This document shows positions 22,461 through 58,880 of a stretch of DNA of 64,000 nt, one piece after another. The notes below the pieces were generated by a model. That model worked only from the letters and a program-made list of their open reading frames with translations. It was not told the origin of the DNA and did not search any database. The stretch is from an uncultured Gammaproteobacteria bacterium (GTDB taxonomy: Bacteria > Patescibacteriota > Microgenomatia > UBA8517), in NCBI GenBank assembly GCA_964583685.1, contig CAZOVJ010000001.1, positions 393,152 to 457,151 on the forward strand. Reading direction: 5' to 3'. Positions within the stretch are counted from its first letter, which is position 1, and the number at the start of each line of letters is the position of its first letter. The translations under genes were made by a program, and so were the position numbers.

Positions 22461-23269
22461 TTTGCATTTTGATTTTTAAATTTTGCACTTTTTAATTGCA
22501 TTTCCCACAATTTTGCATAACTAACAAACCGACTAAACATCTGATAAATAATCTCCATAATACCAATCGGGCCGTCTAAAAAACCCAACTTGAGCACTGC
22601 TCGGTACCAAAATTCCCGAAAAACGGCGGATGAAAATCGGCAAATATTCATCTTCGGATGGCCAGCTTCAAACATCAAGCGGACTTCAATCTCTGACCAC
22701 CTATTAGTTTTTTCAACCATCTCCGTTAAGGAACGGTGAGTAAGATGAATCATTGGTTCTTTTAACTTGCCAACACTGCCTTTAATCTTCGGCTGTTCGT
22801 GAAGTTCTCCTCGCCAAGCCTCCAACTTATCCTTTTTAATCAACCTCAAAACATAATCCGGCCACCAACCACCGTGTCTCATTTCATGGCCTAGTAAAAT
22901 ATTACGCCTGGGAATAGCAAAGGCAGAGTGAACAGTGAACGGTGAACAGTGAACGGTGAACAGTGAAAGAATCTCTTTTTTAAGTTCAGGGGTTACACGC
23001 TCGTCGGCATCAATATAAAAGAGCCACTCTCCCTTGGCTTTTTCTGCTCCGAGATTCCTCCAATTTGAAAAACCCTTCTTTCTTGTTTTAATAATCTCAG
23101 CCCCATGCTTTTGGGCAATTTTCACTGTTTTATCAGTCGAGCCACTGTCAATAATAATAACCTCATCTGCCAATCCTTGAAGCGAGTTCAAACATCCACC
23201 AATCATCTTTTCTTCATTTTTGGCAACAATTATCGCACTCAAATGGACTTTTTTATTTTTCATTTCCAT
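22457..23269 (-). CDS. GT2 family glycosyltransferase carrying an in-frame heptamer-repeat insert; start trimmed to an internal Met
   Basis: LSAIIVAKNEEKMI...VIIIDSGSTDKT...YIDADE. The ORF-track start at 23323 would overlap the upstream gene by 64 nt. The C-terminal tail (EMQLKSAKFKNQNAK) is built from AAAATGC-type repeats. Confidence 0.75.
   Translation of the reverse strand: MEMKNKKVHLSAIIVAKNEEKMIGGCLNSLQGLADEVIIIDSGSTDKTVKIAQKHGAEIIKTRKKGFSNWRNLGAEKAKGEWLFYIDADERVTPELKKEILSLFTVHCSPFTVHSAFAIPRRNILLGHEMRHGGWWPDYVLRLIKKDKLEAWRGELHEQPKIKGSVGKLKEPMIHLTHRSLTEMVEKTNRWSEIEVRLMFEAGHPKMNICRFSSAVFREFWYRAVLKLGFLDGPIGIMEIIYQMFSRFVSYAKLWEMQLKSAKFKNQNAK
22460..22518. repeat. Degenerate heptamer tract (TTTTGCA/TTTTGAT/TTTTAAA) spanning a gene junction
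   Basis: Forms the C-terminal tail and stop of 22457..23269. Its first base is part of the start codon of 21435..22460. Confidence 0.75.
22926..22967. repeat. Heptanucleotide tandem repeat (RGTGAAC)x6 (sense strand GTTCACY / TTCACYG phase), in frame in a GT2 gene
   Basis: agtgaacagtgaacggtgaacagtgaacggtgaacagtgaaa encodes LFTVHCSPFTVHSAF. Confidence 0.95.
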
Positions 23270-24186
23270 GAGCCCTGACCTAAACGGCAAAGATAAAAAT
23301 CGCGAACAGCCTTTTTCTGCCATTCTCTACCTGAAAGCAAAAATTTCAGACTTTCTTTGAAAAGAGCGAGCTTTGCCCTCAAAGAAGCATATTTTATAGC
23401 AAACAAAAGTCTGTTTCGGGTAATAAAATAGTCATTTAAATTACTGCCAATTCCCGAGCTCCTGGCTACCTTGTGCCAAAGATGGGCCGAAGGTAGATAC
23501 AAAATCTGCCAACCCTTTTTCTTCATCCGTTGACACAAATCTACATCCTCTAAATACATAAAATACTCCTCATCAAAAAAACCCACTTCCTTTAAAGCCT
23601 GAGCTCTTATTAACATACAGGCTCCGCTAGCAAAATCTGTTTCCTCAACTTTATCGTATTGTCCTTTATCCAGCTCATCCACACCCCGATTACTACCCAA
23701 AAGATTTTTCCAATCGAACTTTCCTCCTGCATACCAAATAATTTTCCCCAACTCTGATTTCTTGTATCTTTTTTTGTGAAACTCAAATCCGGGTGCAAAA
23801 TAGATTTTTGGCGACAAAATCCCTGCCTTTTCATAATTTTCAGCCGCTTTAATTAATTGAAGTAAAAGACTTTTATCGACCAAGGTATCGTTGTTCAAAA
23901 GTAGCAGATAATCAGCCTTGTTTTTAAGAGCATATTTAATACCAACATTATTCCCCCCGCTAAATCCCAAGTTCTTTTTATTCTTAATTAGTTGAAAGTT
24001 GGAGGTTGAAAGTTGAAAGTTGCTGAGGCTCTCAGGTGAGCTATCAGTTGAGCCATTGTCCACCACAACCACTTCTACCCTGCAATTATCAGTTAATAGC
24101 CCCTTAAGAGATTTCAAGCACTCAAGAGTATCCTCATGGCCGTTGTAGTTCAAAATGATAATTGAAACCTTTAGCTCTTTAGCCAT
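23260..24186 (-). CDS. GT2 family glycosyltransferase
   Basis: VSIIILNYNGHEDT...VVVVDNGSTDSS...LLLNNDT. Contains the SNFQLSTSNFQL repeat insert. Confidence 0.8.
   Translation of the reverse strand: MAKELKVSIIILNYNGHEDTLECLKSLKGLLTDNCRVEVVVVDNGSTDSSPESLSNFQLSTSNFQLIKNKKNLGFSGGNNVGIKYALKNKADYLLLLNNDTLVDKSLLLQLIKAAENYEKAGILSPKIYFAPGFEFHKKRYKKSELGKIIWYAGGKFDWKNLLGSNRGVDELDKGQYDKVEETDFASGACMLIRAQALKEVGFFDEEYFMYLEDVDLCQRMKKKGWQILYLPSAHLWHKVARSSGIGSNLNDYFITRNRLLFAIKYASLRAKLALFKESLKFLLSGREWQKKAVRDFYLCRLGQGSWK
23991..24025. repeat. Heptanucleotide tandem repeat (GTTGAAA-like)x5, in frame in a GT2 gene
   Basis: gttgaaagttggaggttgaaagttgaaagttgctg encodes SNFQLSTSNFQL in 23260..24186. Confidence 0.9.
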
Positions 24187-25099
24187 TTAAAAATTTTCTT
24201 TTAATTCTCAGAAAAAATGAAGAAAAAAGATTTTTGGAACTGATAAGAGACTCTGTTGACCACCAATTATATTCCCCAATAGTCTTCTTAATCTCCTTGT
24301 CTACCTCTGGCAAAGAAAATTGTTGTCCGAGAAATTTCTCTTCCTGCCAAATTTTCAAATACAAAACAAGTTCAGAAAAGGCTTGAAGAAGAGAAAGAGC
24401 AAGACCATGAAGACCATCTTTATATCCCTGACCATGAAAATAGCGACCTAAAAATTCAGAGCTAGGTCGTCTTATAAGGTCGGGCCAAATAAATCTATGT
24501 CCTTCTTTTATTTTGTGGTTTGCTTGTATTGTTGTGTAGCGATTCATACGCCTCAAAAATTGCTCAATTGATTGATAATGATGATGAATAATAGCCAAAT
24601 CTTCTTTGGCCGGTAAATCAATTCCCCGACCCTTGGTCATAGGAATAGAGTGAATCACCTCACTCCACTTAACAGATCCCTTTTTGAAAAAACGAATATT
24701 TAAATCAGGCCACCAGCGAGAATGTTTCAGCCATTTACCAAAAACAATGTTCTTACGAGGAATTCGATAAAAATCAGGGCCAAGCCCTTGACTAGCAGAA
24801 TCGGCTATCTCCCTTAACTTTCTGGCCAAGCCCTGCTGAAGTTCTTCGTCTGCATCTAAAATTAAAATCCAATCTCCTTCTGTTTTAGAAATGGCAAAAT
24901 TCCTGGCTGGCTCGACATAACCTGTTCTCTTGTGTTTAAAAACCTTTGCCCCTGCCTTTTTGGCAATCTCAACTGTTTTGTCAATTGACTGCATATCAAC
25001 AACAACAATTTCATCTGCCAGCTGCTGGATGGAAACAAGAAGGCGTGGTAAATTTTTCTCCTCATTTAAGGTGTTGACGACAACTGAAATCTTGCTCAC
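24179..25099 (-). CDS. GT2 family glycosyltransferase
   Basis: ISVVVNTLNEEKNL...IVVVDMQSIDKT...LILDADE. Confidence 0.8.
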   Translation of the reverse strand: MSKISVVVNTLNEEKNLPRLLVSIQQLADEIVVVDMQSIDKTVEIAKKAGAKVFKHKRTGYVEPARNFAISKTEGDWILILDADEELQQGLARKLREIADSASQGLGPDFYRIPRKNIVFGKWLKHSRWWPDLNIRFFKKGSVKWSEVIHSIPMTKGRGIDLPAKEDLAIIHHHYQSIEQFLRRMNRYTTIQANHKIKEGHRFIWPDLIRRPSSEFLGRYFHGQGYKDGLHGLALSLLQAFSELVLYLKIWQEEKFLGQQFSLPEVDKEIKKTIGEYNWWSTESLISSKNLFSSFFLRIKRKFLNG

Positions 25100-25347
25100 A
25101 AATCAATTTTACCACGATATCTCAGATTTATTTAATCTTTTCCTTGAAGCCTCATTGACTCCAACCTGCCATGAGGCTATAGTATGTACGAACCTTAAAA
25201 GCAAAAATACCTATAGGAGGATTGCCTGTTTAAAAAACAACTGCAGAATGGTGACTCTGGCACTTAGCTTTTTGTCTATTTTCTTGCGCTCATCCTCATA
25301 GCGAGGAAATCGGGGCAATGACTTAGCAAACTGAAAGGAGCAAGATC

Positions 25348-25713
25348 GTGATTGAGACTAAAGATGGTCAGGGTTCTGAACAGGTTCATGTCACCATATT
25401 CACTCTAATTGCGGAACTCGAGGGCTATGCCTGGGTGGCCTGTGGCATGATTTTCGCCCAGTTTCTCATCAACCTGGTTGGCCCAGCAAGGCTAACTTGC
25501 GGTGCCGGCGAAGCCTACTGTCGGGATTGGCAGTTGCTACTCCTTTCTCTGGCAATTGGGCTAATAATATTTAGCTTAATTGCCTTGTGGTGTTTCTTCA
25601 GGAAAACCGCTTTATTCCCGCAAGTGCGTACTCCAGGGGTAATCTTAGCTAGCCTTGGGGCATTTGCCGGAATAGTGGTAGCGTCCACGATCCTGGCAGG
25701 AATTTTCTACTAG
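25348..25713 (+). CDS. Small 3-TM membrane protein of unknown function on a GC-elevated island (GTG start)
   Basis: 121-aa ORF with GGAG about 8 nt upstream of GTG. GC is visibly higher than the flanks. Three hydrophobic helices. No recognisable family. Confidence 0.4.
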   Translation: MIETKDGQGSEQVHVTIFTLIAELEGYAWVACGMIFAQFLINLVGPARLTCGAGEAYCRDWQLLLLSLAIGLIIFSLIALWCFFRKTALFPQVRTPGVILASLGAFAGIVVASTILAGIFY

Positions 25714-25772
25714 TTACAGGAGGCAGAAATGCTAAAGCTCTATGGTTGGCTGCTCTGACCGTCGGTCCATAA

Positions 25773-25812
25773 GTGGGTGTTGCTTAATGCAGCAAAGACA
25801 GGCAGCACCCAC
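25773..25812. terminator. Strong hairpin (11-bp stem GTGGGTGTTGC/GCAGCACCCAC, one G-U pair; 18-nt loop) 1 nt downstream of the stop of 25814..27535
   Basis: Inverted repeat read directly. Sits between convergent ends, so it may act as a bidirectional terminator. Confidence 0.4.
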
Positions 25813-25813
25813 C

Positions 25814-27535
25814 TCAGTATTTCACTTCGTATATATTAACTTCTGAATTTTCAAATATTTTTGTTATTCCCAGCTGAGTCTCACCAAGTTTAGCTCGCTG
25901 GTCTTTTAGCCAATAAATATAAGAAATATTATTTTCTATCAGAAACTTCCTTACTTGATTTTGTTCCAGAGTGTTTAAGAAATCTAAAACTTTTTCCCGT
26001 CTTGAAGGCCAATCGTAACCAGTGATATTTAAATTAACCTCATCTTCAAGGTAAACTGGCTTATCAGAAAAAGCAGAAACATAGGCTGTTGATTCATATA
26101 AATAAAGGGGTCTGGGTGGGTGGCTAACTGCCTTTTCTGCCGCCTCTTTATCAAAAGGATAGGTTAGCACTACAGCTTCTGGCTGTTGAGAAAGAAAGCC
26201 TAGGGCTTCAAGTTCTTGATTTGAAATTTTGGCCGGAGGCCGACCGGTCAAATAATGATTTTTTAGTGTTACAAAAGTGGTAGGAATTGTCAATAAAACA
26301 ACGCCTATCACTATAAGGATACGAGCCCATGAAGTTTTTTGCCTCTCAAACCATTCTCCCACCACCAAGCCGGCCAAGATTGCAGAAAAAAATAAAGAAT
26401 AGTAAAAAAACTGAATTGTATTCCAAGGAGTCCCCTTCTGAAGGAAAAAGAGGGGAATAAACAGGCCGGCCAATATTACTGTTCCCAAGAATATTTCAAT
26501 CTCACCTATTTTTTTAAATTTTTTCAGCCATTGACAAAAGACAATTGCTCCCAGAACCCTAGTTCCCATATTCCCCAGCCAAAATATTAGGAAAGCAATT
26601 AAATAGGCTGGAACTGCTTTCCAGTAAATCTTGGCCAGCCGATAGTTAACCATTGCCTCCTGAAATCTTGGCCAGCCCAGCCGGTCTGAAAGACCCATCA
26701 TTGTTTCCAAAAACCAAAAAGGCCGGAAAACCAAAAGCCCAACAGATTTTTTGTTTAAGGCTAAAAATAAAAGAAGAGAAATGACTAAGGAAGCAAAAAA
26801 GACAAAAATAAGCCTCCTATTTTTTTTACAAAGAATTGCTAGGCCTAGACCAAGCAAGGCTAAAACCCCAGCATAAGCCTTCACCTCAATGAGAATAGCA
26901 AAAATAAAAACAGCAAAGAGAAAATGAAAAAGAGAGAAACGCTTTTTGAGCTCTAGTAAAGCGATTAAGCCCAAAAGCAGCAAAAGCAAAGATAAAGCAA
27001 AAGGAGGATTAATCAGAGTTGAAATCGCCTGTTGGGCCCAAAACATGGACTCTCCAGTAAGCCTTCCTTCTCGGACAAGGCTCACCAGCCAGCCAAAACT
27101 AGCAGCAAAATAAGTAAAAAACAGAGCCCAAAGTGCTTGGGTTCGGGCCTGCCTCGCCGAGTCTAGGCGGGATTTTCTCCAAACAAGAACAAATTTATAG
27201 GTCGCCAGGCCAATTAAAATTGCCAAGATTGGCGGTGTCAATTGAAAATAAAGAATCTCAACCGGAATCCGGCTGATTTTATGGATAATTGCCAAAAGAA
27301 GATCAAAGCCCGGATGATAATTGGCCAGTTTCTCTCCGGCAAAAACCGGCATCTCGGCTGAATTCCTAGCTAAACTCTTAATCAAGCTAATATGCCAAAT
27401 ACCATCGTGGCCATTTGCTCCCCAGAACCCCAGACCAGAAGCACAGGCCGCATCCCAACAAAGCCCGCTTCTAACCATAACCAAGGACCAGGACAGAACA
27501 CCAAGAATAATTAGTAACACTGTTAATTTCCTCAT
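25814..27535 (-). CDS. Polytopic membrane protein, GT-C-like, unknown specificity
   Basis: 573 aa, at least 12 TM helices, C-terminal soluble domain. Co-operonic with a GT-C neighbour. Confidence 0.55.
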   Translation of the reverse strand: MRKLTVLLIILGVLSWSLVMVRSGLCWDAACASGLGFWGANGHDGIWHISLIKSLARNSAEMPVFAGEKLANYHPGFDLLLAIIHKISRIPVEILYFQLTPPILAILIGLATYKFVLVWRKSRLDSARQARTQALWALFFTYFAASFGWLVSLVREGRLTGESMFWAQQAISTLINPPFALSLLLLLLGLIALLELKKRFSLFHFLFAVFIFAILIEVKAYAGVLALLGLGLAILCKKNRRLIFVFFASLVISLLLFLALNKKSVGLLVFRPFWFLETMMGLSDRLGWPRFQEAMVNYRLAKIYWKAVPAYLIAFLIFWLGNMGTRVLGAIVFCQWLKKFKKIGEIEIFLGTVILAGLFIPLFFLQKGTPWNTIQFFYYSLFFSAILAGLVVGEWFERQKTSWARILIVIGVVLLTIPTTFVTLKNHYLTGRPPAKISNQELEALGFLSQQPEAVVLTYPFDKEAAEKAVSHPPRPLYLYESTAYVSAFSDKPVYLEDEVNLNITGYDWPSRREKVLDFLNTLEQNQVRKFLIENNISYIYWLKDQRAKLGETQLGITKIFENSEVNIYEVKY

Positions 27536-29265
27536 CAGATTTTAGTTATCCAACTTTGACAAAATTTCTTCCTTGACTGCCCTTCAACACTAAAATCCCT
27601 GTACGCCTCAGGGTGAACATACTGCCCAAGTTCAAAATCTCGACACAAAAAATCCTTTTTAATCACGTATTTTGCCAAAACATCCCGAAAGCGAGTAATG
27701 CGAGCAAAACCCTGTTCTGTCTCTTCTCTGCAATTCAGCTTCCCGTCAAAAATCCAAACAATATTTTCGTCCAGGCCATTCTCAAAACAATCAGAAACAA
27801 AGCTGACATTTCTATAGGAATAGTTTTTGTTAACCAGTCCCTCTGGTGCATTTAGATAAAAAAGGTACTCATGAAAAAGAATTTTTGGTTCAAAAGTAGA
27901 AACAATAATTTCTTTATTTGGATATGTCTTTTGAGTTAAATCTATATATCGAACAAGAACTCTATCTTGGAAAAACCATCCATCAGAAGCATAAACCGGA
28001 AAGCGATAAAAATAGATATGTAAAAGATTGACAAAAAGCAGCAAATAGATTGCGAGCAAAAAATATTTCAATCTTCCGAATCTCATTACATAACCTAAAC
28101 CGAGCCCAATTAAAATAATCAGAAAAGGGTACATCAACCCCGCTCTTTGGCTGTAAGAATGCTCGATTGTACTCAACCCAGAGGTCAACGAACCAACGGC
28201 AATGGCAACCAATAAAAACCACCATGTTTTTTTGCTTTTGAAAAACAATAGACTAAAGCCAACCAGCAAAAAAAGTAAGTCAACAAAGTAAAAAGTGCCG
28301 TGTTTCTGATAAGAAAAAGCAGCCCGAAGTTCGCCATTAAGAAACAAATTATCAGCCGAAAAAGTGTTCAGGTATTTTTCTAAAAAGCCCTTGCCATAAA
28401 CAGTTAACTTATTAATAAACAAATTATTGAACTGCCAGGGTACTGTTCTTAACCTCTCGCTGTTTACCTCACCACTTATTTCAGACAATGTTGGTAAATA
28501 GAGTTCTCCACCTCTTGCCCTCATTGATTGATTCTGGATAATAATTACTGCATAACTAGCAAGGATGACAGAAACAATAAGACTGAAAACAAGATAGGGT
28601 TTTATGCTGCGTTGACCACTAGAAAAGTAATGATAAAAAAGAGTAGCGATTATAAAAAAATAAAAAGCAATCTGACCACCTGTATAGCTAAAAAAACCCA
28701 AGAGATAAAAAGGTAAAGCATAAAAGATACCATAATCTTTCTTCTTCAGAAGAACAAGAAAACCAAGCAAAAAGAAAAAGACAAAAAAGTTTACCTCAAA
28801 GACCGTCCTACCCATTAAAAAGCTCCAGGGATTTATTGCCATTACAAAAGATGTGATAATGGCAGTCTTTTTGTCGGCGAAAAGGTGCATAACTAAGTGA
28901 TAAACAACCAGGACAGTGAGCGAAGATAAAAGTGCGCCGACCATCCTACTTGCAAAAAGGGAAAAAGGCAGAGGACCAACAATTAGCATCAATAAAAATA
29001 CTGGAACCTCTGCAACCGTAACAGTGAAATCTTGCATTTGAGTCGGTAAAACTGCCGGAGCTGTACCCGATACAAACTTACCAGTTTTAAAGAATGATTT
29101 TGCTGCAACAACATAATTGAGCTCGTCATGTGTCATTCCTATAGGGAACTTGTCAAGTAAAATTAACCTTATCCCCAGAGAAAAAATAAAAATCAGGAGC
29201 AACCAAAATTTATTTTGAAAAAACTGTTCTAAAGCCTTTTTTAACATCAGCAAAGATTGAGGCAC
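27535..29265 (-). CDS. GT-C glycosyltransferase (PMT/ArnT-like, divergent)
   Basis: First-loop motif GMTHDELNYVVAAKSFFKTGKF. Polytopic, with a C-terminal soluble domain. Confidence 0.65.
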   Translation of the reverse strand: MPQSLLMLKKALEQFFQNKFWLLLIFIFSLGIRLILLDKFPIGMTHDELNYVVAAKSFFKTGKFVSGTAPAVLPTQMQDFTVTVAEVPVFLLMLIVGPLPFSLFASRMVGALLSSLTVLVVYHLVMHLFADKKTAIITSFVMAINPWSFLMGRTVFEVNFFVFFFLLGFLVLLKKKDYGIFYALPFYLLGFFSYTGGQIAFYFFIIATLFYHYFSSGQRSIKPYLVFSLIVSVILASYAVIIIQNQSMRARGGELYLPTLSEISGEVNSERLRTVPWQFNNLFINKLTVYGKGFLEKYLNTFSADNLFLNGELRAAFSYQKHGTFYFVDLLFLLVGFSLLFFKSKKTWWFLLVAIAVGSLTSGLSTIEHSYSQRAGLMYPFLIILIGLGLGYVMRFGRLKYFLLAIYLLLFVNLLHIYFYRFPVYASDGWFFQDRVLVRYIDLTQKTYPNKEIIVSTFEPKILFHEYLFYLNAPEGLVNKNYSYRNVSFVSDCFENGLDENIVWIFDGKLNCREETEQGFARITRFRDVLAKYVIKKDFLCRDFELGQYVHPEAYRDFSVEGQSRKKFCQSWITKI

Positions 29266-30673: not shown

Positions 30674-30722
30674 ATTGTAGCATTAGTCTAATTAAGAACA
30701 AAATATATTGTAAAATATTCTA
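30674..30722. promoter_or_regulatory. Divergent promoter region between the Wzx-like operon (-) and the 30723 operon (+)
   Basis: 49-nt AT-rich spacer between divergent starts. No specific -35/-10 assigned. Confidence 0.3.
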
Positions 30723-33238: not shown

Positions 33239-33240
33239 AA

Positions 33241-34752
33241 TTATTGAATTTGGGCCACAAGGGGAAAAACCTTATCTCCGGGAAAATCTTCTGAAACCCC
33301 TCCCAAATCTTCGTAAAAAACCTTGAGCTCAAAATCTTGATAAAGAAGTTGCAAGGCATCACTGCCGGAAAGGGCAAAGAAAGCTTGTTTTGAGGTTCCT
33401 CCCCAATCTTCGGCCACAAAAGGGTAATCAGGGTCGTTAGTAAAATAAACAGCCGAACCTTTGGGTAATTGAGAATACCTTAATTTAACCTGCTTTATTA
33501 ATCTTTGTGCCAATCTACCCCGACTGGCAGCCCAGTAAGTAGAATCTGCCAATCTCACCGAGCTTATTGAGAGCAGCAAAAGGGCAGCAACAAATACACC
33601 GAAGATTGCGACAGCTAGTTTTTTGTTTTTTTTAGCCAATAGCCAATAAGCCTTAAAAGCTAAAAACCCAACCGCTGCCCAAAAAGCAGGCAAGGCAGCA
33701 GCTAGATAATGGCTTGATTTATGAAAAGGCAGAAATAGCACTGGAGCCAGAGCCAAGGGAAACCAAAAGACAAACAGCCAAAATCTTCTATCAATAAAAG
33801 TCTTTTTGTTTCTTAAAAATAAATAAGTAACGGCCGCTGAAAGAATGGTAACCGCTAAAAAGAATGTTGGGAAAATAAGGGAAAAATAATTACCCCAATG
33901 ACGCATAAGACTGGGGTTAAGCCGAAGACCTGGCCGGACAAAATCAATAACCATCTCGGGTAAACCCAAGGACCAAGCCAAATACCAGACAAGGGTGTTC
34001 AGGGTACTTTTAATATTAAAAGTAGGTTGGTATTGGGGCTCGGTTTGGGAAAAGCCGATAACGAAAAAGTTCAAATAAAGATAAAGTCCAAGTACAAAGA
34101 AAAGAGGCCAGATTTCTTTAATTGCTTTTAAAATAACCCGACCCGCATCTTTCTCTTTTAGAAAAAACAGCCCGCCCAAAAGAAAGGGAGTTGCCACTGC
34201 CAACTCATGGCAAGTCAAAGCCAGAAGGAAAGCAAAAAAGCTTGCAAATTTAAATCTAATTTTCTCCTTCTCTAGATACCTCCAAAAAATAACTAGACTA
34301 AAAAGCATAAACATGGCCGCAGCTAGGGTCTGAATCCCTCCGGCCAGATAATACAAACTGGCCATATTAGCGGCCGTAATGCCAAAGAAAAAGGCGACAA
34401 AAAAAGAAAGCCTGGCTTTAGCAAAAAGTCTTTGCATCAAAACATAAACCAGACTGATGTTTATAAAATGCAAAATCAGACTTAGAAACCTAAAAGGAAG
34501 ATGATTTAAACCAAAGATAGAATAAAAAATATTATATAAAACTTCTCTAAAAAGCGGCCGGTAAAAGGCAATCCCCCTTTGCTCAAAAGGATGAAATCCG
34601 AAAAAATTGATAAATGCTCTTAAACTACCATCTGTTCGGGCAACCTGGAAATGAAAAAAATCATCACCGGTAAAATAGACGGAAAAAATTGAGCAGTAAA
34701 GAAGGAGGACAACCAAAAAAATCAAGAGTAATGGTGCAAGCTTCTTAACCAC
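33241..34752 (-). CDS. GT-C-like polytopic membrane protein (PMT_2-like, divergent)
   Basis: N-terminal loop FTGDDFFHFQVARTDGS. 503 aa, multi-TM. Confidence 0.55.
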   Translation of the reverse strand: MVKKLAPLLLIFLVVLLLYCSIFSVYFTGDDFFHFQVARTDGSLRAFINFFGFHPFEQRGIAFYRPLFREVLYNIFYSIFGLNHLPFRFLSLILHFINISLVYVLMQRLFAKARLSFFVAFFFGITAANMASLYYLAGGIQTLAAAMFMLFSLVIFWRYLEKEKIRFKFASFFAFLLALTCHELAVATPFLLGGLFFLKEKDAGRVILKAIKEIWPLFFVLGLYLYLNFFVIGFSQTEPQYQPTFNIKSTLNTLVWYLAWSLGLPEMVIDFVRPGLRLNPSLMRHWGNYFSLIFPTFFLAVTILSAAVTYLFLRNKKTFIDRRFWLFVFWFPLALAPVLFLPFHKSSHYLAAALPAFWAAVGFLAFKAYWLLAKKNKKLAVAIFGVFVAALLLLSISSVRLADSTYWAASRGRLAQRLIKQVKLRYSQLPKGSAVYFTNDPDYPFVAEDWGGTSKQAFFALSGSDALQLLYQDFELKVFYEDLGGVSEDFPGDKVFPLVAQIQ

Positions 34753-45826: not shown

Positions 45827-46857
45827 TTTTTCTTGGCAAATTTTTTGGCTGTCTGAAGTACCTTCTCTACTGCTTTAGTAAAGGCAAGTCCCTGGATTAT
45901 TACTCCGGCTGCTGCCTTATGCCCACCCCCACCCAAGACAAGGGCTATTTTAGAAACATCAAAATCAGTCCGCGCTCTGAAACTTACTGAAAGCTTGCCT
46001 TCTTGCTTTTCCAGCATAATTATCCCAAAATCAACCCCCTTTACAACCCCGGCAAACATACTGGCTGCACCCTCATGTGCCTGTAAAGGCCTACCATACT
46101 CTAAAAATTTATTATAAGGAAGGGCTGACCAAACAAATTTAAACTTTTTTTCAAACTTCATCCCAGTAAGAAATTCGCCCCACATCTTTAAGGTATTAAA
46201 TCCCATACTGCGATAAAGGTGGAAAATAATTTTTTCTTTATCAGCTCCCCCTTTAAGAAGCTTTATGGCTGCTTCCAGGGTTTTCAAACTAGTATTGGAA
46301 AATCGGAAAACTCCTGTGTCTCCAATTATGCCAGTAAGAAGAGCTGTGGCAATATTTCTATCAATTTCAACTTTCCAATCTTTAAAAATTAAGTAAAGAA
46401 GCTCTCCAACCGAGCTAACCTTAGCATCAACTAAATTTATGTTTCCAAATTTCTCGTTTGTTTTATGATGGTCTATTACTATAAGGGGGAGGCTGGGTAC
46501 TTTTATGTCTTTATCTCCAGAAACCATGTACCAACTGGCAGAATCAAGAACAATAAAAAGATCAAATCTCAAAAAGTTATAAGTCGAAAAATCTACAACT
46601 TGAATTTTCTCAGAATAGGCTAAAAACTTAACACTTTCTGGTAGTTCATTTGGGCAGATTACTTCTACTTTTTTCCCCATTTTTTTGAGGACCTGGTACA
46701 TAGCCAGTGCGCTGCCAAAAGCATCGGGATCAGGACTACGATGGCAATTAAGCAGAATTCTCTTGGACTGCTTAATCTCTTTTAAAATTATTTTCGACTG
46801 CTGATAATTCATTGCGTGTGGACTAGTTGATATAAGGTTATTCCTCCAACTTGCCAC
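45823..46857 (-). CDS. nrnA: DHH/DHHA1 phosphoesterase, NrnA-like (oligoribonuclease / pAp phosphatase)
   Basis: DHH motif (LIVIDHHKTNEKFG), DxD (HRSPDPDAFGSA) and DHHA1 GGGH (LGGGGHKAAAG). Confidence 0.8.
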   Translation of the reverse strand: MASWRNNLISTSPHAMNYQQSKIILKEIKQSKRILLNCHRSPDPDAFGSALAMYQVLKKMGKKVEVICPNELPESVKFLAYSEKIQVVDFSTYNFLRFDLFIVLDSASWYMVSGDKDIKVPSLPLIVIDHHKTNEKFGNINLVDAKVSSVGELLYLIFKDWKVEIDRNIATALLTGIIGDTGVFRFSNTSLKTLEAAIKLLKGGADKEKIIFHLYRSMGFNTLKMWGEFLTGMKFEKKFKFVWSALPYNKFLEYGRPLQAHEGAASMFAGVVKGVDFGIIMLEKQEGKLSVSFRARTDFDVSKIALVLGGGGHKAAAGVIIQGLAFTKAVEKVLQTAKKFAKKK

Positions 46858-48413
46858 TCTTTTTCAATTTTGCTCCAGCCAAAATTGGCAACCTCTGCTT
46901 TCGGGTTGTGAGTAGGATCACACTTCTCTTTTGGCAGTTCGCAAACAACAAAAAGCTGATTGGTTATTGTTTCATCTACCCTTAATGGATCAATATCTAT
47001 TACACCAGTATCCCATTTTTCCAAAAAATACTGATATGCATCCTCGTAGTTTCTTTCAGCAATAACAGCCAAGTTGAACTTCTGACCTTCTGCTTCTTCT
47101 TGAATTTTGGCGGCAACCTCTTGAGATCTTTGCAACTGCCTGTTTGGCGGACCATTAATCGGGCTGTTCCTTAAATTAACGATAATCAAGAAACCAAAGG
47201 CGATAAGCGATAAGAAATAAGCCCTTGGAGAAAAGTCTTTTAATTTCTGGATGATTGCCCCAACTAGAAGAAATGGGGTAGCAAAGAAAAAGCCGTAATA
47301 ATGGTCATAAATTTCCTGCTTAAAAACCCCTAATCCCAAAAGGGCGAAGCCTAGCCAAATAAGAAGCAGGAAATAGGTCTTAAACTTTTTAGCTTCAAAC
47401 CTTGAACGACAAAATTCAAAACCCAACCAGATTACTCCCGCTACCAATCCCAAAGCCGTCCATTTTCCCATAAGCTCATTTTTCCCTGCCAACAATCTGG
47501 TACTAATTTTCTCAATCAAAGGCCAAACTTTAGGTAGGGCTTTCCAGGGCCGGGCAGACACCGTTGTCTGTCTTTGTAAGAAAAATTTTTTCATGGAAGA
47601 AAAGTTCCGCCACCCATGCCGAGCATCAAAAATCACCAATGGAGACATAAGTAAAGTAAAAAGAGCTAGACAAAAAACCGAATACTTTAAAAAACTTTTT
47701 GTTTTTTCTTTATCTTTTTTTATTTCTATTAAGGTTAACAACCAGAAAATTGAAATAACCGGAGCTAAAAGTAAGCCTAAATAATGAGATTGTAAAACAA
47801 AGGCAAAAGATATCGCACTTAGCAAAAACCACTTCCATTCGTGTTTTTGCCAAATACGCCAGGTTGCATAAATCGTCAAAAGGCTAAAAAAGGGCATAAT
47901 GTTCGGATTCCATGAAGAGCGAGAGTAAACAATGACCACCGGCGAAACTGCATAAAGGCCAGCAGCAACCATACTGGCTAAAGGAATTTGTCCGGGGCTT
48001 GTTGAAGGAAACCACTCTCGAGCAATCAACCAAACAAGAGCAATTGTCAAAACAGCCAAAAGGGCAATCAGGACAGCCGGTCCAACAGGAGAATATCCTG
48101 CCAGGAAAAGAGCAGGGGCCATTAGGTAATAATATAAGGGGCCCAAATACATGTCGCCAATTGATGTTCCCGGACCAATCAAGATTGGATCTAGCTTAAC
48201 CAAAAGTCTTCTGACAACAATTACATCTCTACCTTCATCACCCAAAAAAGTCATGTATTCGGAAATTCTATAAAGTCTTAAAAAGCCACCAACTAATAAA
48301 ATTAAAGCCAGGACCATAAACTCCCTTTTATTGGCTTGAATCCAGGCTTTAATTTTGATGAACAGTGAACAGTTAACGGTGAACAGTCGTCTTCTCATTA
48401 CAATTTTCTCCAA
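46809..48413 (-). CDS. GT-C-like polytopic membrane protein, 'RD-motif' family paralog D; N-terminal extension built from heptamer repeats
   Basis: FLGDEGRDVIVVRRLLVKLDPILIGPGTS. An internal ATG at 48396-48398 overlaps the upstream stop by 1 nt and reads MRRRLFTVNCSLF, encoded by the RGTGAAC tract. Confidence 0.6.
   Translation of the reverse strand: MEKIVMRRRLFTVNCSLFIKIKAWIQANKREFMVLALILLVGGFLRLYRISEYMTFLGDEGRDVIVVRRLLVKLDPILIGPGTSIGDMYLGPLYYYLMAPALFLAGYSPVGPAVLIALLAVLTIALVWLIAREWFPSTSPGQIPLASMVAAGLYAVSPVVIVYSRSSWNPNIMPFFSLLTIYATWRIWQKHEWKWFLLSAISFAFVLQSHYLGLLLAPVISIFWLLTLIEIKKDKEKTKSFLKYSVFCLALFTLLMSPLVIFDARHGWRNFSSMKKFFLQRQTTVSARPWKALPKVWPLIEKISTRLLAGKNELMGKWTALGLVAGVIWLGFEFCRSRFEAKKFKTYFLLLIWLGFALLGLGVFKQEIYDHYYGFFFATPFLLVGAIIQKLKDFSPRAYFLSLIAFGFLIIVNLRNSPINGPPNRQLQRSQEVAAKIQEEAEGQKFNLAVIAERNYEDAYQYFLEKWDTGVIDIDPLRVDETITNQLFVVCELPKEKCDPTHNPKAEVANFGWSKIEKEWQVGGITLYQLVHTQ
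48357..48391. repeat. Heptanucleotide tandem repeat (RGTGAAC family, about 5 units, partly degenerate) at a gene junction
   Basis: gatgaacagtgaacagttaacggtgaacagtcgtc encodes MRRRLFTVNCSLF, an N-terminal extension of 46809..48413 just after the stop of 48398..49108. Confidence 0.85.
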
Positions 48414-50696: not shown

Positions 50697-50702
50697 ATTT
50701 CC

Positions 50703-53502: not shown

Positions 53503-53559
53503 TCAACACAAGCTGATAAACTTGATATACATATTGACAAAAGCTAAAATTGCTCTGTC
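53503..53559. promoter_or_regulatory. Divergent promoter region between the GT2 operon (-) and the ABC exporter operon (+)
   Basis: 57-nt spacer containing TTGACA (53534-53539) and A/T-rich -10-like hexamers. Spacing is not ideal. Confidence 0.25.
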
Positions 53560-54594
53560 TTGGAAAATATGCTGGAGAAAATTAAACAAATAATAACAAG
53601 AAGAAAAAAGCTGACTATTGGGCTGGTTTTAGTCATTGCCGTAGCTGGATTTATTATCTACAAACGCTTCTTTGCTTTTAAGGCTGGTTTAGACAAGACA
53701 ACTGTCAAGAGAGGGAGTGTTGCCGAAGAACTAATTTTGTCCGGTGAAATAAAGGCTGAAGAGCACGCTGTATTACGATTTGAAACCTCGGGTCAAATCA
53801 TTTGGGTGGGAGCAAAAGAGAGCAATATTGTTAAAAAAGGACAACTATTGGCCAAACTTGATACAACCAGCCTTAATGCTAGCTATCAAAGAGCTCTTTC
53901 TGATCTTCGTTCAGCCCAAGCAACGGTTGAGCGTGTCCACGACGATGTTAAAGACCATGCCTCAGATGAAACTTACACTCAAAAAGAAACTAGAACAACT
54001 GCCGAGGTAGCAAAAGACAAAGCCTATGAGGCAGTCTTAATTGCTGAAAGAAATCTAAAGGGGGCATCACTCCATGCGCCGTTTAAAGGAACAGTAACCT
54101 CTGTAGCCAATCCCTTTCCTGGAGCATTTGTTCTCTATTCTCAAAACCAATTCGAAATAGTTAACCCTAAGACCATTTATTTTAATGTTTCTGCTGACCA
54201 AACCGAGATAACACTCATGAAAGAAGGCCAGGAAGTGGCAATAACCTTGGATTCTTTTCCGGAAAAAGAAATAAAGGGAACTATTGAGAATATTTCCTTT
54301 AGCCCAGACCTTGAAGAAGTGGGGGTCGTTTATAAGATAAAGGTTTCTTTTGAAGAGCTCGAAACTGAGGACCTTAAATACAGACTGGGAATGACCGGCG
54401 ATGCGACCTTTGTTATGGATGAAGTAAAAGATGTTTTGTATGTTCCTGTTCAATTTCTTAAAACAGATAAGGAAGACCATTATCTGCTGATAAACGGCGG
54501 CAAGAAAAAAGTTTACGTTGAAATAGGGGTCGAAGGCGAAGACAAAGTAGAAATAAAGGGAGACATCAAAGAGGACGATATCGTCTATGATTAG
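53560..54594 (+). CDS. Efflux transporter periplasmic adaptor (HlyD/MacA-like membrane fusion protein)
   Basis: N-terminal TM anchor, coiled-coil region, beta-barrel/lipoyl-like segments. Precedes the ABC ATPase and permease. Confidence 0.7.
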   Translation: MENMLEKIKQIITRRKKLTIGLVLVIAVAGFIIYKRFFAFKAGLDKTTVKRGSVAEELILSGEIKAEEHAVLRFETSGQIIWVGAKESNIVKKGQLLAKLDTTSLNASYQRALSDLRSAQATVERVHDDVKDHASDETYTQKETRTTAEVAKDKAYEAVLIAERNLKGASLHAPFKGTVTSVANPFPGAFVLYSQNQFEIVNPKTIYFNVSADQTEITLMKEGQEVAITLDSFPEKEIKGTIENISFSPDLEEVGVVYKIKVSFEELETEDLKYRLGMTGDATFVMDEVKDVLYVPVQFLKTDKEDHYLLINGGKKKVYVEIGVEGEDKVEIKGDIKEDDIVYD

Positions 54595-55264
54595 TTTAAG
54601 TAATGTTTATAAAACCTACTTCCTTGGAGATGAAAAAGTTGAAGCCCTCAAGAAGATAAATCTGGATATCAAAGAAGGCGAATATCTTGGAATCTTAGGC
54701 CATTCAGGCAGCGGCAAATCTACACTGATGCACATCATCGGCCTTCTTGACAGGCCGAGTAAGGGGAGGATAAAACTTTTTAATAAAAAGACTGAAAATC
54801 TCTCAGATGATGAAATCTCCCGTCTAAGGAACGAGTATATCGGATTTGTCTTTCAGCAGTTTAACCTGATTGAAAAATTTACTATTCTTGAAAACGTTCT
54901 CTTGCCGACCCTCTACGCTAAAAACAAATTAAAATTTGATCCCCAAAAACGAGCTCTTGAGCTTCTTAAAAGTTGTGGAATTCATGAGAGGGCTGACTTC
55001 TATCCTAATAAAATCTCAGGCGGCGAGCAACAAAGAACAGCCATTGTCAGAGCCCTGATGATGAACCCTAAAATTCTTTTGGCGGACGAGCCAACAGGAA
55101 ATATTGACACTAAAACAGGAGATGAGATCATGGACCTGATTGATAAATTAAATAAAGAGATGGGCGTGACCATTGTCGTGGTTACCCATGAAAAGCATAT
55201 CGTGGAGAGGACAAAACGACAAATATTTATTCGTGACGGCGAAATAGTTTCAAAATATCTTTAA
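54587..55264 (+). CDS. ABC transporter ATP-binding protein (MacB/LolD-like)
   Basis: Walker A GHSGSGKST, signature LSGGEQQR, Walker B ILLADEPTGNID. Confidence 0.9.
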   Translation: MISLSNVYKTYFLGDEKVEALKKINLDIKEGEYLGILGHSGSGKSTLMHIIGLLDRPSKGRIKLFNKKTENLSDDEISRLRNEYIGFVFQQFNLIEKFTILENVLLPTLYAKNKLKFDPQKRALELLKSCGIHERADFYPNKISGGEQQRTAIVRALMMNPKILLADEPTGNIDTKTGDEIMDLIDKLNKEMGVTIVVVTHEKHIVERTKRQIFIRDGEIVSKYL

Positions 55265-56466
55265 TGAAAAATCTTTTATTTCAAATAAAAACAGCCTCCG
55301 AGGATTTTAGAAGAAATAAAGTTCGAACATTTTTGGCCTCTCTTGGAATAATGATTGGTGTTTTATCTGTTGTCATGCTCATCGCCCTGGGGCTGGGTTT
55401 AAAAAATTATATCAAACAGCAATTTGAAAGTATGGGTTCAAACCTAATTTTTATCATGCCAGGGAGCTTTCTTTCAGGAGAAGGCGGGCTTAGATCCATG
55501 GGACCAGGCCTTATGGGAGGAGCCAAATTTGATGAGAGAGATCTAACAAGCTTGCAAAGAATCCCAGAACTTGATTATGTAATCCCCATGTACACAAAAG
55601 CTACTCTAGTTGAGGCAAAAGGAGAAGAAGAGTATGGTAATATCCTAGGCACGAATGAAGAGGCGTTTAAAGCACTTAACTTAGAGCCAAAAAAAGGCAT
55701 TGTCTTTACGAAGAGTGATGTGCAAAGAAAGGCAAAAAAGGTAGTCCTTGGCTATAATCTGGCCAAAGATCTTTTTGGAGAACCCGAAGACGCTATTGAC
55801 AAAAAGATTCGCTTTGACAATCAACGTTTTAAGGTTATAGGCATTTTGGAAAAAAAGGGTGACCAGGAAATGGATGCGGGAATTTTTATGCCCTATAAAA
55901 CTACCTTTGGAAGCATCAACCCTGACAAAACATTTTTCGCAATCTACCTGGGAGTTCACTCCGATGAAGATGTAGATAGAGTTAAAAATAAAGCAGAGGA
56001 AATTCTTCTAAAAAGGCATGAAGAAGAAGATTTTTCAGTTACAGAACAGACTGAAATGTTAAATATTGTCAATCAAATATTTGGGGTAATCAACGGTGTC
56101 CTAATTGCCATTGGTTCAATTTCTCTGGTTGTGGGTGGGATTGGAATCATGAATATTATGTATGCCAATGTTAGTGAGCGGACAAGGGAGGTGGGCATCA
56201 GGCGGGCAATCGGTGCAACCAAAAAAGACATCCTCTTTCAATTCCTGTTCGAATCAATAATGTTATCCCTGTTTGGCGGAATTATGGGTTTGGTTATAGC
56301 GATTATTTTGGTCATTATAATAAGAAACTTTTTCCCAGTGGCGATTAATCTGGTAGCAGGAATTGTAGCCTTTGGTGTAAGCACTTTTATCGGTGTTTTC
56401 TTTGGGGTTTTCCCTGCCCGCCGGGCCGCCAACCTTGAACCAATTGAAGCCATAAGATACGAATAA
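55264..56466 (+). CDS. ABC transporter permease, FtsX/MacB-like
   Basis: N-terminal TM, large periplasmic domain, then 3 C-terminal TM helices (FtsX fold). ATGA overlap with the ATPase gene. Confidence 0.8.
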   Translation: MKNLLFQIKTASEDFRRNKVRTFLASLGIMIGVLSVVMLIALGLGLKNYIKQQFESMGSNLIFIMPGSFLSGEGGLRSMGPGLMGGAKFDERDLTSLQRIPELDYVIPMYTKATLVEAKGEEEYGNILGTNEEAFKALNLEPKKGIVFTKSDVQRKAKKVVLGYNLAKDLFGEPEDAIDKKIRFDNQRFKVIGILEKKGDQEMDAGIFMPYKTTFGSINPDKTFFAIYLGVHSDEDVDRVKNKAEEILLKRHEEEDFSVTEQTEMLNIVNQIFGVINGVLIAIGSISLVVGGIGIMNIMYANVSERTREVGIRRAIGATKKDILFQFLFESIMLSLFGGIMGLVIAIILVIIIRNFFPVAINLVAGIVAFGVSTFIGVFFGVFPARRAANLEPIEAIRYE

Positions 56467-56485
56467 ATCTTTTCACTTCACACCT

Positions 56486-57484
56486 CTAAGGTGTACAAAT
56501 TAGGGTGAGAAGGCGAGCAAAGAGCCAGCCAAGAACAATTGTTATTGGTAAAGTTAAAACCCAAGAAAGAATAATATCAAGAACAATCCCCCAGCGCACA
56601 CTTGAAAATCGCCGTGCTGCACCGGAGCCGACAATAGAAGAGGTAATAGTATGGGTTGTGGACACAGGAATACCAAAAACAGAAGCCAACTGCAATACAC
56701 TGGCAGCAGAAATTTCCGCAGTAAAACCCTGCTCAGGAACTAAAGGAGCAATTTTCATACCCAGAGTTTTAATAATTCTCCACCCTCCGTAAGCAACACC
56801 TAAACCAGCCGCTAAACCAACGGTTAAAATAACCCACAAGGGTACTGTTATTTCCTCCCAACCAAAATAAAGGGCTAAAATCATTACTAAAATGCCCATT
56901 GGTTTTTGGGCATCGTTACGACCGTGGCTAAATGCCATAAAAGCAGACGATGCTATTTGTAAGTTCTTAAATAACAAAGCCGCCTTGCGGGCAGGAGCAG
57001 AGTGGAATAAATAATAAATAATTTTCATCAACAAAGCTCCAGCCAAAAATCCTAATAATGGTGAAAGAATAATGGCAATTAAAACTTTTGTTAAACCTGA
57101 CCAAAGAATTACTTTTACACCGACTGTGGCTGTCGCTGCGCCGACAACTGCTCCAATCAAACCATGGGTTTCACTAACTGGTATACCAAAATAATAGGTA
57201 AATAAACTCCAAGTCATTGTTCCCAAGAGTGCGGCTAGAACAACAGGTAGGGAAATCAGGTCTAAAATTACAATCCCCTTGCCAATGGTCAAGGCGACAG
57301 CCGTGCCAGTTAGGGCGCCAACTATCTCTAAAATCCCGGCCATTATAATGGCAAAAGTGGGCGAAAGTGCTCGTGAACCAATTGAAGTAGCAATAGCATT
57401 GGCCGCGTCAGTAAAACCACTAACAAAAGCATAAATATAGGAAAAGGAAATAACCAATAATAGCAAAACTATGGAGTGCTCCAT
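56486..57484 (-). CDS. pit: Inorganic phosphate transporter, PiT family
   Basis: Duplicated signature GFTDAANAIATSIGSRAL and HGRNDAQKPMG. About 10 TM helices. Confidence 0.8.
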   Translation of the reverse strand: MEHSIVLLLLVISFSYIYAFVSGFTDAANAIATSIGSRALSPTFAIIMAGILEIVGALTGTAVALTIGKGIVILDLISLPVVLAALLGTMTWSLFTYYFGIPVSETHGLIGAVVGAATATVGVKVILWSGLTKVLIAIILSPLLGFLAGALLMKIIYYLFHSAPARKAALLFKNLQIASSAFMAFSHGRNDAQKPMGILVMILALYFGWEEITVPLWVILTVGLAAGLGVAYGGWRIIKTLGMKIAPLVPEQGFTAEISAASVLQLASVFGIPVSTTHTITSSIVGSGAARRFSSVRWGIVLDIILSWVLTLPITIVLGWLFARLLTLICTP

Positions 57485-57487
57485 GAA

Positions 57488-58147
57488 CTATTTATATTTA
57501 ATCCTCAATCTCTCTAAAAGAATGGCATCCGCTTCACATATATCAAGGGTATCTTCCAGGGTATGGATAATTTCCTTCCATTTCATAATTGACATAAAAC
57601 CCTTTCCATCAAACATCGAGGTTCTTTCCCCCATCAAATTCTCCAAAGATTGCCTGTGCAGCTTGTCTCCCTCATCCTCCAAATCGTGCAATTTTTTGTA
57701 ACAAGAAGCAAAATCTTTTGAATCCATCTCATAATCCTTGACCATAACCATACCTTGGTGAATCAGCTCAGTCGCTTGCAAAATCAATTGGGAGAATTCT
57801 TTTAAGGCCGGATTGCTTTTAGTAATCCGGTAGATTTTAAGACGGTTTGTTACTTGCTCAAGGTTGTCGACTATATCATCTAGGGATTCTGTTAATTCTT
57901 TAATATCTTCTTTATCCAAGGGCAAGATAAATCTTTTTTCAATTTCATCAGTAATCTTGTGGACCATCTTATCTGCTTGGTCCTCCAATTTCTCAAATGC
58001 GAGGCTGTCTTTCTTCAGGTTTCTTAAATTAAAAACAATTTTCTGGAATAATTGGGCGGATTTTTTAACTATCAATGCCTGCTTTACCAGATCTTCAAAA
58101 ATTCTTGATTTCTTGGGTAAGAACATTCCCACGTTAGTGTAGCACAA
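57488..58147 (-). CDS. DUF47 (PhoU-like) phosphate transport regulator partner of PiT
   Basis: Helical protein of 219 aa immediately upstream of pit, the usual DUF47-PiT pairing. Confidence 0.65.
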
Positions 58148-58169
58148 AAATTATAGTACAATAGGATTA
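58148..58169. promoter_or_regulatory. Very short (22-nt) divergent spacer between the DUF47-pit operon and trmD
   Basis: AGGA 5 nt upstream of the trmD ATG. The promoters must overlap the coding ends. Confidence 0.2.
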
Positions 58170-58880
58170 ATGAAAATAGATATTCTCACCCTTTTCCCCC
58201 AGATGTTTAAGGGACCCTTTGATGAATCAATCCTTCGGCGAGCTCAGGATAAAGGTTTGCTGGAAATTAATATCCATAATCTCCGGGATTGGGCTGTTGA
58301 CAAACACAAAAGCGTTGACGACAGACCATATGGAGGTGGGACAGGAATGGTACTAATGATCGAGCCAATATATAAAGCCCTCAAAAATATCCGATCACCA
58401 GTCACTAGTCACCGTTCACTGGTTATTCTCCTCACTCCCCAAGGTAAATTCTTTAACCAAAAAAAGGCACAAGAACTTTCCAAGCTTGAACATTTAATTT
58501 TAATTGCCGGCCATTACGAAGGTTTTGACGAAAGAATAAGACGACATTTGGTTGATGAGGAGCTCTCAATTGGTGATTATGTTTTGACTGGTGGAGAACT
58601 TCCGGCCATGGTTGTCAGCGACGCAATTGTCCGTCTCATTCCTGGAGTTCTCGAAAAACCCGAAGCTACCAAAAACGAGTCCTTTTCACCGACTACTGTT
58701 CACCCTTCACCGTTCACCGTTTTAGAATACCCCCAATACACTCGGCCGGAAACCTTCAAGGGCTGGAAAGTCCCGAAGATTCTTCTTTCCGGCAATCATC
58801 AGGAAATTGAAAAATGGAGAAAAGAAAAGGCAATCACCCGCACCAAATCCCAACGGCCAGACCTTTTAAGAGGTCTGTAA
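58170..58880 (+). CDS. trmD: tRNA (guanine37-N1)-methyltransferase TrmD, with two heptamer-repeat-derived loop insertions
   Basis: [13 protein letters not shown]...[12 protein letters not shown]...[12 protein letters not shown]...[16 protein letters not shown]...ILLSGNH matches TrmD throughout. Encoded outside the usual rpsP-rimM-trmD-rplS context. Confidence 0.9.
58394..58421. repeat. Degenerate heptamer tract (GTCACYR/TTCACTG, about 3-4 units) inside trmD
   Basis: atcaccagtcactagtcaccgttcactg encodes SPVTSHRSL in a variable TrmD loop. Confidence 0.6.
58685..58719. repeat. Heptanucleotide tandem repeat (TTCACCG)x5 (one degenerate unit) inside trmD
   Basis: ttcaccgactactgttcacccttcaccgttcaccg encodes [12 protein letters not shown], an insertion relative to the common [15 protein letters not shown] TrmD segment. 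Confidence 0.9.

Follow-up and report, generated by a model that had tools for sequence, protein, structure and literature searches.

Heptanucleotide repeat arrays lie in frame inside trmD and glycosyltransferase genes of a Microgenomates bacterium

Results

The window studied here, a 64-kb stretch (64,000 nucleotides, nt; about 39% G+C) of the 485-kb contig CAZOVJ010000001.1, contains four tandem arrays of the heptanucleotide TTCACYG within three unrelated genes that encode a GT2 glycosyltransferase, a GT-C protein of the PMT_2 family and the tRNA m1G37 methyltransferase TrmD. The nearest homologs of the TrmD and GT2 proteins are labelled Patescibacteria, Microgenomates or Woesebacteria, and the source is an uncultured, ultrasmall bacterium of the Microgenomates group of the candidate phyla radiation (CPR). 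Tandem Repeats Finder and our own scans revealed four to six head-to-tail 7-nt copies in each of the four tracts. Written in a 7-nt register on the sense strand of the host gene, the trmD gene (58170-58880, plus strand) carries ATCACCA GTCACTA GTCACCG TTCACTG at its first site (58394-58421, four units, peptide SPVTSHRSL) and TTCACCG ACTACTG TTCACCC TTCACCG TTCACCG at its second site (58685-58719, five units), in the interdomain linker, where it is flanked by the ESFS and LEYPQY motifs. The GT2 array (22926-22967, minus strand) is (TTCACTG TTCACCG)x3, a 42-nt tract of perfect period 14 that encodes the peptide FTVHCSPFTVHS in a loop, and the GT-C array (48357-48391, minus strand) consists of the five units ACGACTG TTCACCG TTAACTG TTCACTG TTCATCA, which encode LFTVNCSLF in an N-terminal tail. 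The initial annotation of the sequence had described these tracts as inserts of one repeat family, and their positions, their sense orientation and their peptides are all as given there. The pattern TTCACYGTTCACYG, with at most two mismatches, matched the window 11 times compared to 0.76 matches expected, and none of 100 shuffled sequences reached 11. Moreover, all four tracts show an alternation of CTG and CCG, i. e. a 14-nt super-unit. A comparison of the flanks of the four tracts revealed nothing in common beyond the unit, neither conserved termini nor a target-site duplication, and this speaks against the discrete colonising element that had been proposed.

The TTCACYG family is real at its four loci within the window, but it is one of many, and other heptamer units are equally frequent. 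Tandem Repeats Finder also detected AAGGCAA, CCGCAAC, AGTTGAA, CAAAATG, TAGCCAA and GCGATAA, among others. Exact period-7 runs occur seven times in the window as compared to 0.6 in dinucleotide shuffles, with periods 5, 6 and 8-13 at background. For the coding sequence, we found eight period-7 tracts versus 0.52 (maximum 3) upon shuffling of codons within open reading frames (ORFs), and periods 6, 8, 9 and 12 were not enriched over these shuffles. The same preference is seen in Microgenomates-like loci (181 kb), with 30 tracts of period 7 as opposed to one of period 6, four of period 8, nine of period 9 and five of period 12, whereas loci from other phyla contained 34 period-7 tracts in 1.3 Mb. 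At a slightly lower threshold the window has 18 period-7 tracts, and 17 of them are located within ORFs: ORFs of at least 100 amino acids (aa) cover about 99% of the window, and almost every array is therefore intragenic. The arrays of the window are all in frame and are found in mid-protein loops rather than preferentially at the 5' ends of genes.

The orientation of the arrays follows from simple arithmetic. As seven leaves a remainder of one upon division by three, three consecutive units pass through all three reading frames, and an orientation that contains TGA, TAA or TAG cannot persist in an ORF. The reverse complement of TTCACYG is CRGTGAA, which contains TGA, and for this reason the unit is found in the sense orientation only. 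All 17 tracts located in ORFs of the window are stop-free in sense, and antisense stops are present in 12 of the 18 listed units, TTCACYG included. Similarly, the peptides encoded by the tracts are related because three-frame reading yields cyclic permutations of one 7-aa string. Thus, the sense-only orientation and the related peptides, which had been taken as the sign of a special element, are both forced by the unit length and the genetic code and do not point to a directed element. The same orientation argument was made by MacGregor for the TAACTGA repeats (PMC4679880). The suggestion that tract lengths keep the frame holds for the net insert relative to orthologs, which is a multiple of three, but among the tracts themselves only the 42-nt tract is a multiple of three. 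Long TTCACYG-type arrays in ORFs are rare, as judged from a query of 5.8 billion proteins with (FTVHCSP)x6 that returned only four weak, short matches. Units of the TTGAAAA type would meet TGA in the third frame; they are seen as LKIEN LKIEN (P0011, P0031, P0033 and others; L002:3031-3055; L173:1191-1208) with a 15-nt period, in which two units are followed by a single additional base. Such a period apparently prevents closure of the array and shows the stop-codon filter at work.

The product of trmD was identified by its match to PF01746 (tRNA_m1G_MT, residues 23-230, E=1.2e-63) and to TrmD structures in the PDB, best to 3ky7 (E=2.5e-79); the gene, called essential in the initial annotation, is near-universal and presumably essential. 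Relative to distant TrmD proteins and to S. aureus TrmD (3ky7), the protein of the window is longer by about 8 aa at site 2 and by about 3 aa at site 1. In the AlphaFold model, site 1 is a surface loop between helix 64-74 and strand 83-94, and site 2 corresponds to a low-confidence interdomain linker with a predicted local distance difference test score (pLDDT) below 50 over residues 165-200. Among 120 TrmD homologs with 64-76% identity, the length varies from 220 to 282 aa, and this variation is concentrated at the two sites. The homologs contain lineage-specific inserts with a 7-aa periodicity, such as KSKVKSQKSKV, RPKTKDQRPKT, SPVTSHQSPVT, LTINHQPLTI, LKIENLKIEN and others. We scored a protein as positive if any of its 7-aa windows could be obtained by translating three tandem copies of a single heptamer, and this was the case for 42 of the 120 TrmD homologs and for 9 of 120 GT2 homologs but for none of the shuffled proteins. 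All TrmD matches fall at sites 1 and 2. A census of such heptamer peptides in the control loci, carried out over ORFs from stop to stop, suffered from spurious GC-rich ORFs and was excluded from the enrichment claims.

The DNA of the orthologs shows the same picture. At site 1, perfect arrays of (AGACCAA)4.7, (AAGTCAA)4.7 and (CCAGTCA)4.4 are present in L163, L165 and L162, respectively; these arrays of 31-33 nt occupy the same 11-codon (33-nt) slot as the imperfect array of the window. Both sites carry arrays in L082, L169, L171 and L173, and site 2 does so as well in L002 and L083. Of 173 TrmD loci that were scanned, 18 have a period-7 tract inside trmD, and 16 of these 18 encode proteins at least 55% identical to the TrmD of the window, with the tracts lying at relative positions 0.30-0.37 and 0.73-0.76. 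Among the other loci, most of which belong to other phyla, only two weak tracts were seen, and these lie elsewhere in the gene. The matches listed in a metagenome scan based on the TrmD alignment, which were dominated by generic motifs, were mostly relatives of at most 60% identity, and among them L082, L083, L101 and L107 were the useful ones. The lengths of the sites are bimodal, with 17 versus 21 residues at site 1 and 14-15 versus 22-23 residues at site 2, and units with a TCAC core recur at the trmD sites across the clade. The two sites are thus insertion hotspots that are common to the clade and at which the units turn over. Orthologs have different peptides with a strong nucleotide periodicity at the same sites, and not the same peptide segments without periodicity that would have refuted the initial interpretation. 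The comparison with orthologs thus confirms the claim that the tracts were inserted in frame into unrelated genes, among them trmD, at positions that correspond to variable loops, a linker or a tail.

The insert at site 2 starts just behind the invariant Glu170 (window:58677-58685, residues 170-172, ESF), at a distance of two to three residues. We take this Glu170 to be the counterpart of Asp169, the catalytic residue in E. coli TrmD. Much of the clade lacks the canonical D/E-G-L-L spacer or has another sequence in its place, and the length of the linker beside the catalytic base of TrmD appears to be unusually free in this group. A GTDB scan revealed no close relative; the best TrmD match among its representatives (65% identity) is encoded by L002 (CAYMZX010000015.1), which has an (AAAATTG) array at site 2 and is labelled 'uncultured Gammaproteobacteria'; this contig is probably mis-binned or mislabelled. 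The unit ACCCTAR at site 2 of L083 (5111-5140) is the complement of the plant-type telomere repeat TTTAGGG, probably by coincidence.

The comparison of close relatives allows the turnover of the arrays to be followed. In pairs of TrmD proteins that are at least 85% identical, nearly all multi-residue indels (7, 8, 10 and 13 aa) are located at the two sites; one further 7-aa indel (FARPGLA) is unplaced. L173 and L174, which are 96% identical at the nucleotide level, differ by exactly 21 nt, i. e. by three units of a (TAACATC/AAACATC) array, and this is the frame-preserving change to be expected of slippage under purifying selection. L171 and L172 (95% nucleotide identity) differ by a 30-nt indel, with a perfect 33-nt (AAATTCG)4.7 array in one gene and none in the other, and their site-1 array shows unit-level substitutions that are clustered well above the background divergence. 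At site 2 of a sub-clade with 85-91% identity, we observed the lack of any array, a peptide that back-translates to (ATCACCG)n and another one that back-translates to (TCATCAA)n. Moreover, the presence of perfect arrays in orthologs that share only about 70% protein identity indicates that the arrays are homogenised or created anew much faster than point mutations accumulate. The one other contig with an identical TrmD (L001), which comes from an independent Logan assembly, is 100% identical to the window over 5,984 nt and thus provides no information on copy number.

The glycosyltransferase genes have acquired insertions of the same kind. The GT2 gene (22457-23263, minus strand; mechanical ORF to 23323) encodes a deposited protein of 268 aa that starts with MKNKK, and its identity is confirmed by a match to PF00535 that ends at residue 126, the very start of the tract. 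The loop exceeds that of the shortest orthologs by up to about 8 aa, and other orthologs carry their own 7-aa-periodic peptides at this position. An A-rich period-7 tract (22458-22484, minus strand) forms the C-terminal tail and the stop codon of this GT2 gene. In the neighbouring GT2 gene, (CAACTTT)x4.7 (23990-24022, minus strand) encodes SNFQLSTSNFQL. The gene with the N-terminal array (46809-48398, minus strand) is indeed a GT-C gene, but it belongs to the PMT_2 family (PF13231) and not to the family named in the initial annotation. It probably starts with the ATG at 48396-48398, which overlaps the stop codon of the upstream GT2 gene as TAATG; with this start the tract makes up codons 5-13 of the N-terminal tail. 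In L167, the syntenic ortholog with 63% identity, no such tract is present.

Three PMT_2/GT-C paralogs of the window carry different heptamers (1575-1598, 3264-3282 and 47200-47221) at one common alignment position that directly precedes a hydrophobic stretch; the second of these is (TGCGGGT)x2.7 on the minus strand. As judged from the alignment, this position is a paralogous insertion hotspot analogous to the trmD sites. A fourth array (33633-33648) lies near this position in a more distant paralog. Further arrays in PMT_2 paralogs, both on the minus strand, are a perfect (TTTTGCC)x4.3 (2252-2281, peptide FAFCLLPFA) and (TTTTGCA)n (5468-5493, peptide IFAFCILIFA).

Discussion

The tracts belong to a known kind of sequence, the heptanucleotide simple sequence repeats (SSRs), but they differ from the described examples in that essentially all of them are intragenic, that they occupy orthologous sites of a near-universal gene and that they are found in a CPR organism. 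With moderate confidence, we regard them as SSRs of the kind of the short tandemly repeated repetitive (STRR) sequences, which are produced and remodelled at a high rate in this Microgenomates clade by tandem duplication and slippage with a 7-nt step. According to this model, frequent tandem duplication and strand slippage throughout the clade would make the arrays, and the near gap-free genome would confine them to coding DNA. Only those arrays would then survive that are stop-free in all three frames in the sense orientation, that change the length by a net multiple of three, and that place their 7-aa-periodic peptide into an insertion-tolerant loop, linker, tail or membrane-protein segment. 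The surviving arrays would continue to turn over by gain or loss of the whole array, by in-frame steps of three units (21 nt) and by replacement or homogenisation of the units, and such continuing turnover would leave perfect arrays of different units at orthologous sites. Slippage is the likely generating process, and the arrays may well be near-neutral by-products rather than functional elements. The sharing of one unit by four loci would reflect either copying between arrays or a unit-specific bias.

Several observations weigh against local slippage as the complete explanation. Slippage by one unit cannot build an array of four to five units in trmD without frameshifted intermediates, and the states with and without an array differ by 12 nt at site 1 and by about 24-30 nt at site 2, which are not multiples of 21. 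Four arrays of one unit with an identical CTG/CCG alternation within 64 kb are unexpected from independent local slippage. Of the six orthologs in which the two trmD sites could be compared, three (P0006, P0060 and P0064) have identical units at both, versus one of 30 between genomes; this hints at copying between loci, although the permutation p is only ~0.06. Finally, the sole independent contig, being identical to the window, shows no slippage heterogeneity.

It is therefore tempting to speculate, although we consider this tentative and clearly less probable than the slippage model, that the clade possesses an active, possibly enzyme-driven process that writes homogeneous arrays of four to five units, copies units between loci and uses the arrays as landing pads for the GC-rich hairpins described below. 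Such a process would be the CPR counterpart of the STRR sequences and the small dispersed repeats (SDR), acting inside genes and constantly reshaping protein loops, even those of a near-universal protein such as TrmD.

A more restricted possibility is that unit-specific copying, be it by ectopic gene conversion, by templated insertion at breaks or by a very small mobile element, spreads one heptamer array between loci, so that the four TTCACYG tracts are copies of each other. The recurrence of the unit with its super-unit, the shared units at the two trmD sites and the perfect 33-nt array present in one gene of a 95% identical pair, of which the other gene shows not even a seed, would all fit to such a mechanism, and the typical size of four to five units resembles the preference for four units reported for the GGGNATC repeats (PMC4692102). 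However, the four tracts lack conserved flanks or termini, the L171 genome holds seven arrays in 20.7 kb that are all made of different units, and the statistic for sharing within genomes is marginal. Moreover, TCAC-core units recur across the whole clade, and a peptide-level or mutational attractor could mimic copying. We therefore think that copying of this kind is unlikely to account for the tracts.

It had also been proposed that the tracts are contingency loci. Gain or loss of one 7-nt unit would then switch a gene by frameshift and, in the glycosyltransferase genes, vary surface glycans. In pathogens, SSRs are well known to mediate phase variation of glycosyltransferases. In agreement with this idea, the unit length is not a multiple of three, the large glycosylation island holds several arrays in its GT2 and GT-C genes, and one of them lies at the extreme 5' end of a GT-C gene. 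Yet throughout the clade the arrays are equally prominent in the single-copy gene trmD, every array of the window is in frame, the arrays are short (four to six units) and mid-protein, and the sole copy-number difference between close relatives is exactly three units. A contingency role is thus unsupported for trmD, and we regard it as improbable as an explanation of the arrays.

Finally, it is very improbable that flexible Ser/Thr/His/Pro linkers were selected at the protein level with incidental periodicity, as might be suggested by the inserts in linker and loops and their many S/T/H/P-rich peptides, or that the arrays are assembly artefacts: the former is effectively refuted by the exact three-frame heptamer readings in real but not in shuffled proteins and by the perfect nucleotide arrays retained in diverged orthologs, and the latter is excluded by the identical sequence in the independent Logan assembly and by the recurrence of the pattern in numerous other assemblies made independently.

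The STRR sequences of cyanobacteria have the units CCCCAGT, TTGGTCA and CAACAGT, and STRR3, as CAGTCAA, is one base from CAGTGAA, the reverse complement of the unit in the window. Heptamers were reported to be the commonest class of long SSRs in many bacteria, and slippage related to the polymerase footprint was proposed as their origin (Mrazek, Guo and Shah 2007, as summarised in PMC4679880 and PMC4692102). The long SSRs of that survey resemble the arrays of the window in their tandem 7-nt units, the over-representation of period 7, the lineage specificity and the proposal of slippage. In contrast, the long SSRs of the survey have units that are multiples of three within genes and heptamers that are mainly intergenic (PMC4679880, PMC4692102), whereas essentially all arrays of the window are intragenic and in frame, and they recur with different units at orthologous sites, including those of a near-universal housekeeping gene. 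The STRR sequences of Calothrix PCC 7601 and the GGGNATC repeats of Nostoc and Xanthomonas consist of one unit dispersed at many loci of a genome in short arrays with a preference for about four units (PMC4692102); in the window, TTCACYG recurs at four loci in similarly short arrays. The STRR and GGGNATC arrays are, however, concentrated between genes and under-represented in ORFs (PMC4692102), whereas the window has almost no intergenic DNA and a CPR host, and the G-quadruplex rationale for GGGNATC does not apply to TTCACYG. The TAACTGA repeats of marine Beggiatoaceae, cyanobacteria and Bacteroidetes have stop codons in all frames in one orientation, so that copies in ORFs occur only in the other (MacGregor 2015; PMC4679880). 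These copies encode the 7-aa-periodic LSVISYQ at protein peripheries (PMC4679880), and an ACTG/CAGT core is shared with TTCACTG. The TAACTGA repeats differ in that they are mostly located just upstream of start codons with a proposed role in translational regulation and that a single unit dominates; turnover at orthologous sites, as seen here, was not described for them (PMC4679880). The predominantly intergenic location of the STRR, GGGNATC and TAACTGA repeats was not found for the arrays of the window, but this location is a trait of how those repeats were described and not of their structure. The phase-variable SSR loci, e. g. the tetranucleotide and heptanucleotide repeats of Haemophilus (PMC2651432, PMC8262952), share with our arrays a unit that is not a multiple of three and the location in or near surface-glycosylation genes. 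The arrays of the window are, however, short, in frame and present in a housekeeping gene, and close relatives differ only by frame-preserving amounts. The full-text searches of the literature revealed no paper that links heptamer repeats with Patescibacteria/CPR or Microgenomates. The statement of the initial annotation that no described equivalent was known for this kind of organism agrees with these searches, but equivalents are documented in other phyla.

Ever since the STRR reports of 1990 and the SSR survey of 2007, it has been asked why 7-nt repeats accumulate in bacteria. The arrays studied so far are intergenic, and their history is therefore hard to reconstruct. With arrays inside conserved genes, alignments of orthologous sites can span hundreds of genomes, so that birth, loss, steps of three units, replacement of units and nested insertion become readable, and the mechanism becomes testable by comparative genomics and read mapping. 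Moreover, loop and linker insertions of CPR proteins have a concrete and apparently common origin in heptamer arrays, which drive protein indel evolution in this clade. For annotation, this implies that odd S/T/H/P-rich or 7-aa-periodic segments of CPR proteins are repeat-derived.

The SDR of Nostoc that were studied by Elhai and colleagues in 2008 are reportedly very small elements in heptamer-repeat contexts. In the clade orthologs, GC-rich hairpins of 29-39 nt, such as CCGCCTCTGGCGAG-GCT-CGCCAGAGGCGG, are nested in frame in heptamer arrays of trmD and GT2 genes, whereas the window contains neither GC-rich palindromes nor a nested hairpin, its four tracts being direct repeats only. Hairpins are present at L169:1075-1103, L168:7596-7624, L170:~2400-2440 and L173:~1209-1240 (at the same site in L174). 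The copies of L168 and L169 belong to one family and lie at different trmD sites in different genomes, and peptide signatures of the hairpins (AEGEARQGRQ, PASGEARQRR, ESASGAA and PEG..SRRP) recur in other homologs. The nested hairpin resembles a very small, mobile palindromic element with heptamer arrays as its targets. In addition, two intergenic spacers of L171 (14040-14066 and 17543-17577) consist almost wholly of (AATTTTC)n and (ATATCTA)n, indicating that the arrays also form spacers between genes and not just protein inserts.

Heptamer arrays are also present in contigs of Acidobacteriota, 'Deltaproteobacteria' and Verrucomicrobia (L081:15496-15525, 12226-12241 and 2705-2733; L015, L017, L018, L019 and L027), with units that are identical or similar to those seen here (TGAACAG x4, CTCACTG x4, CAGTGAT, CAGTCAG and CAGTAAT). 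The (TTCACTG)4 array of L081 (Acidobacteriota) is located in a doubtful N-terminal extension of an ORF and was therefore not counted as coding. Many of these units share a CAGT/ACTG core with TAACTGA, and this core is also common to the cyanobacterial STRR1 and STRR3. A common sequence preference of heptamers across phyla is possible.

As to the setting of the arrays, Rfam and tRNA scans of the window gave no matches. The entire window represents a glycosylation island: at least a dozen of its genes encode PMT_2/GT-C-like paralogs of 500-600 aa, and numerous genes for GT2 and GT4 proteins, rmlBCD, a Wzx-type flippase and a YfhO-like protein are also present. Its genes are densely packed and have overlapping stops and starts.

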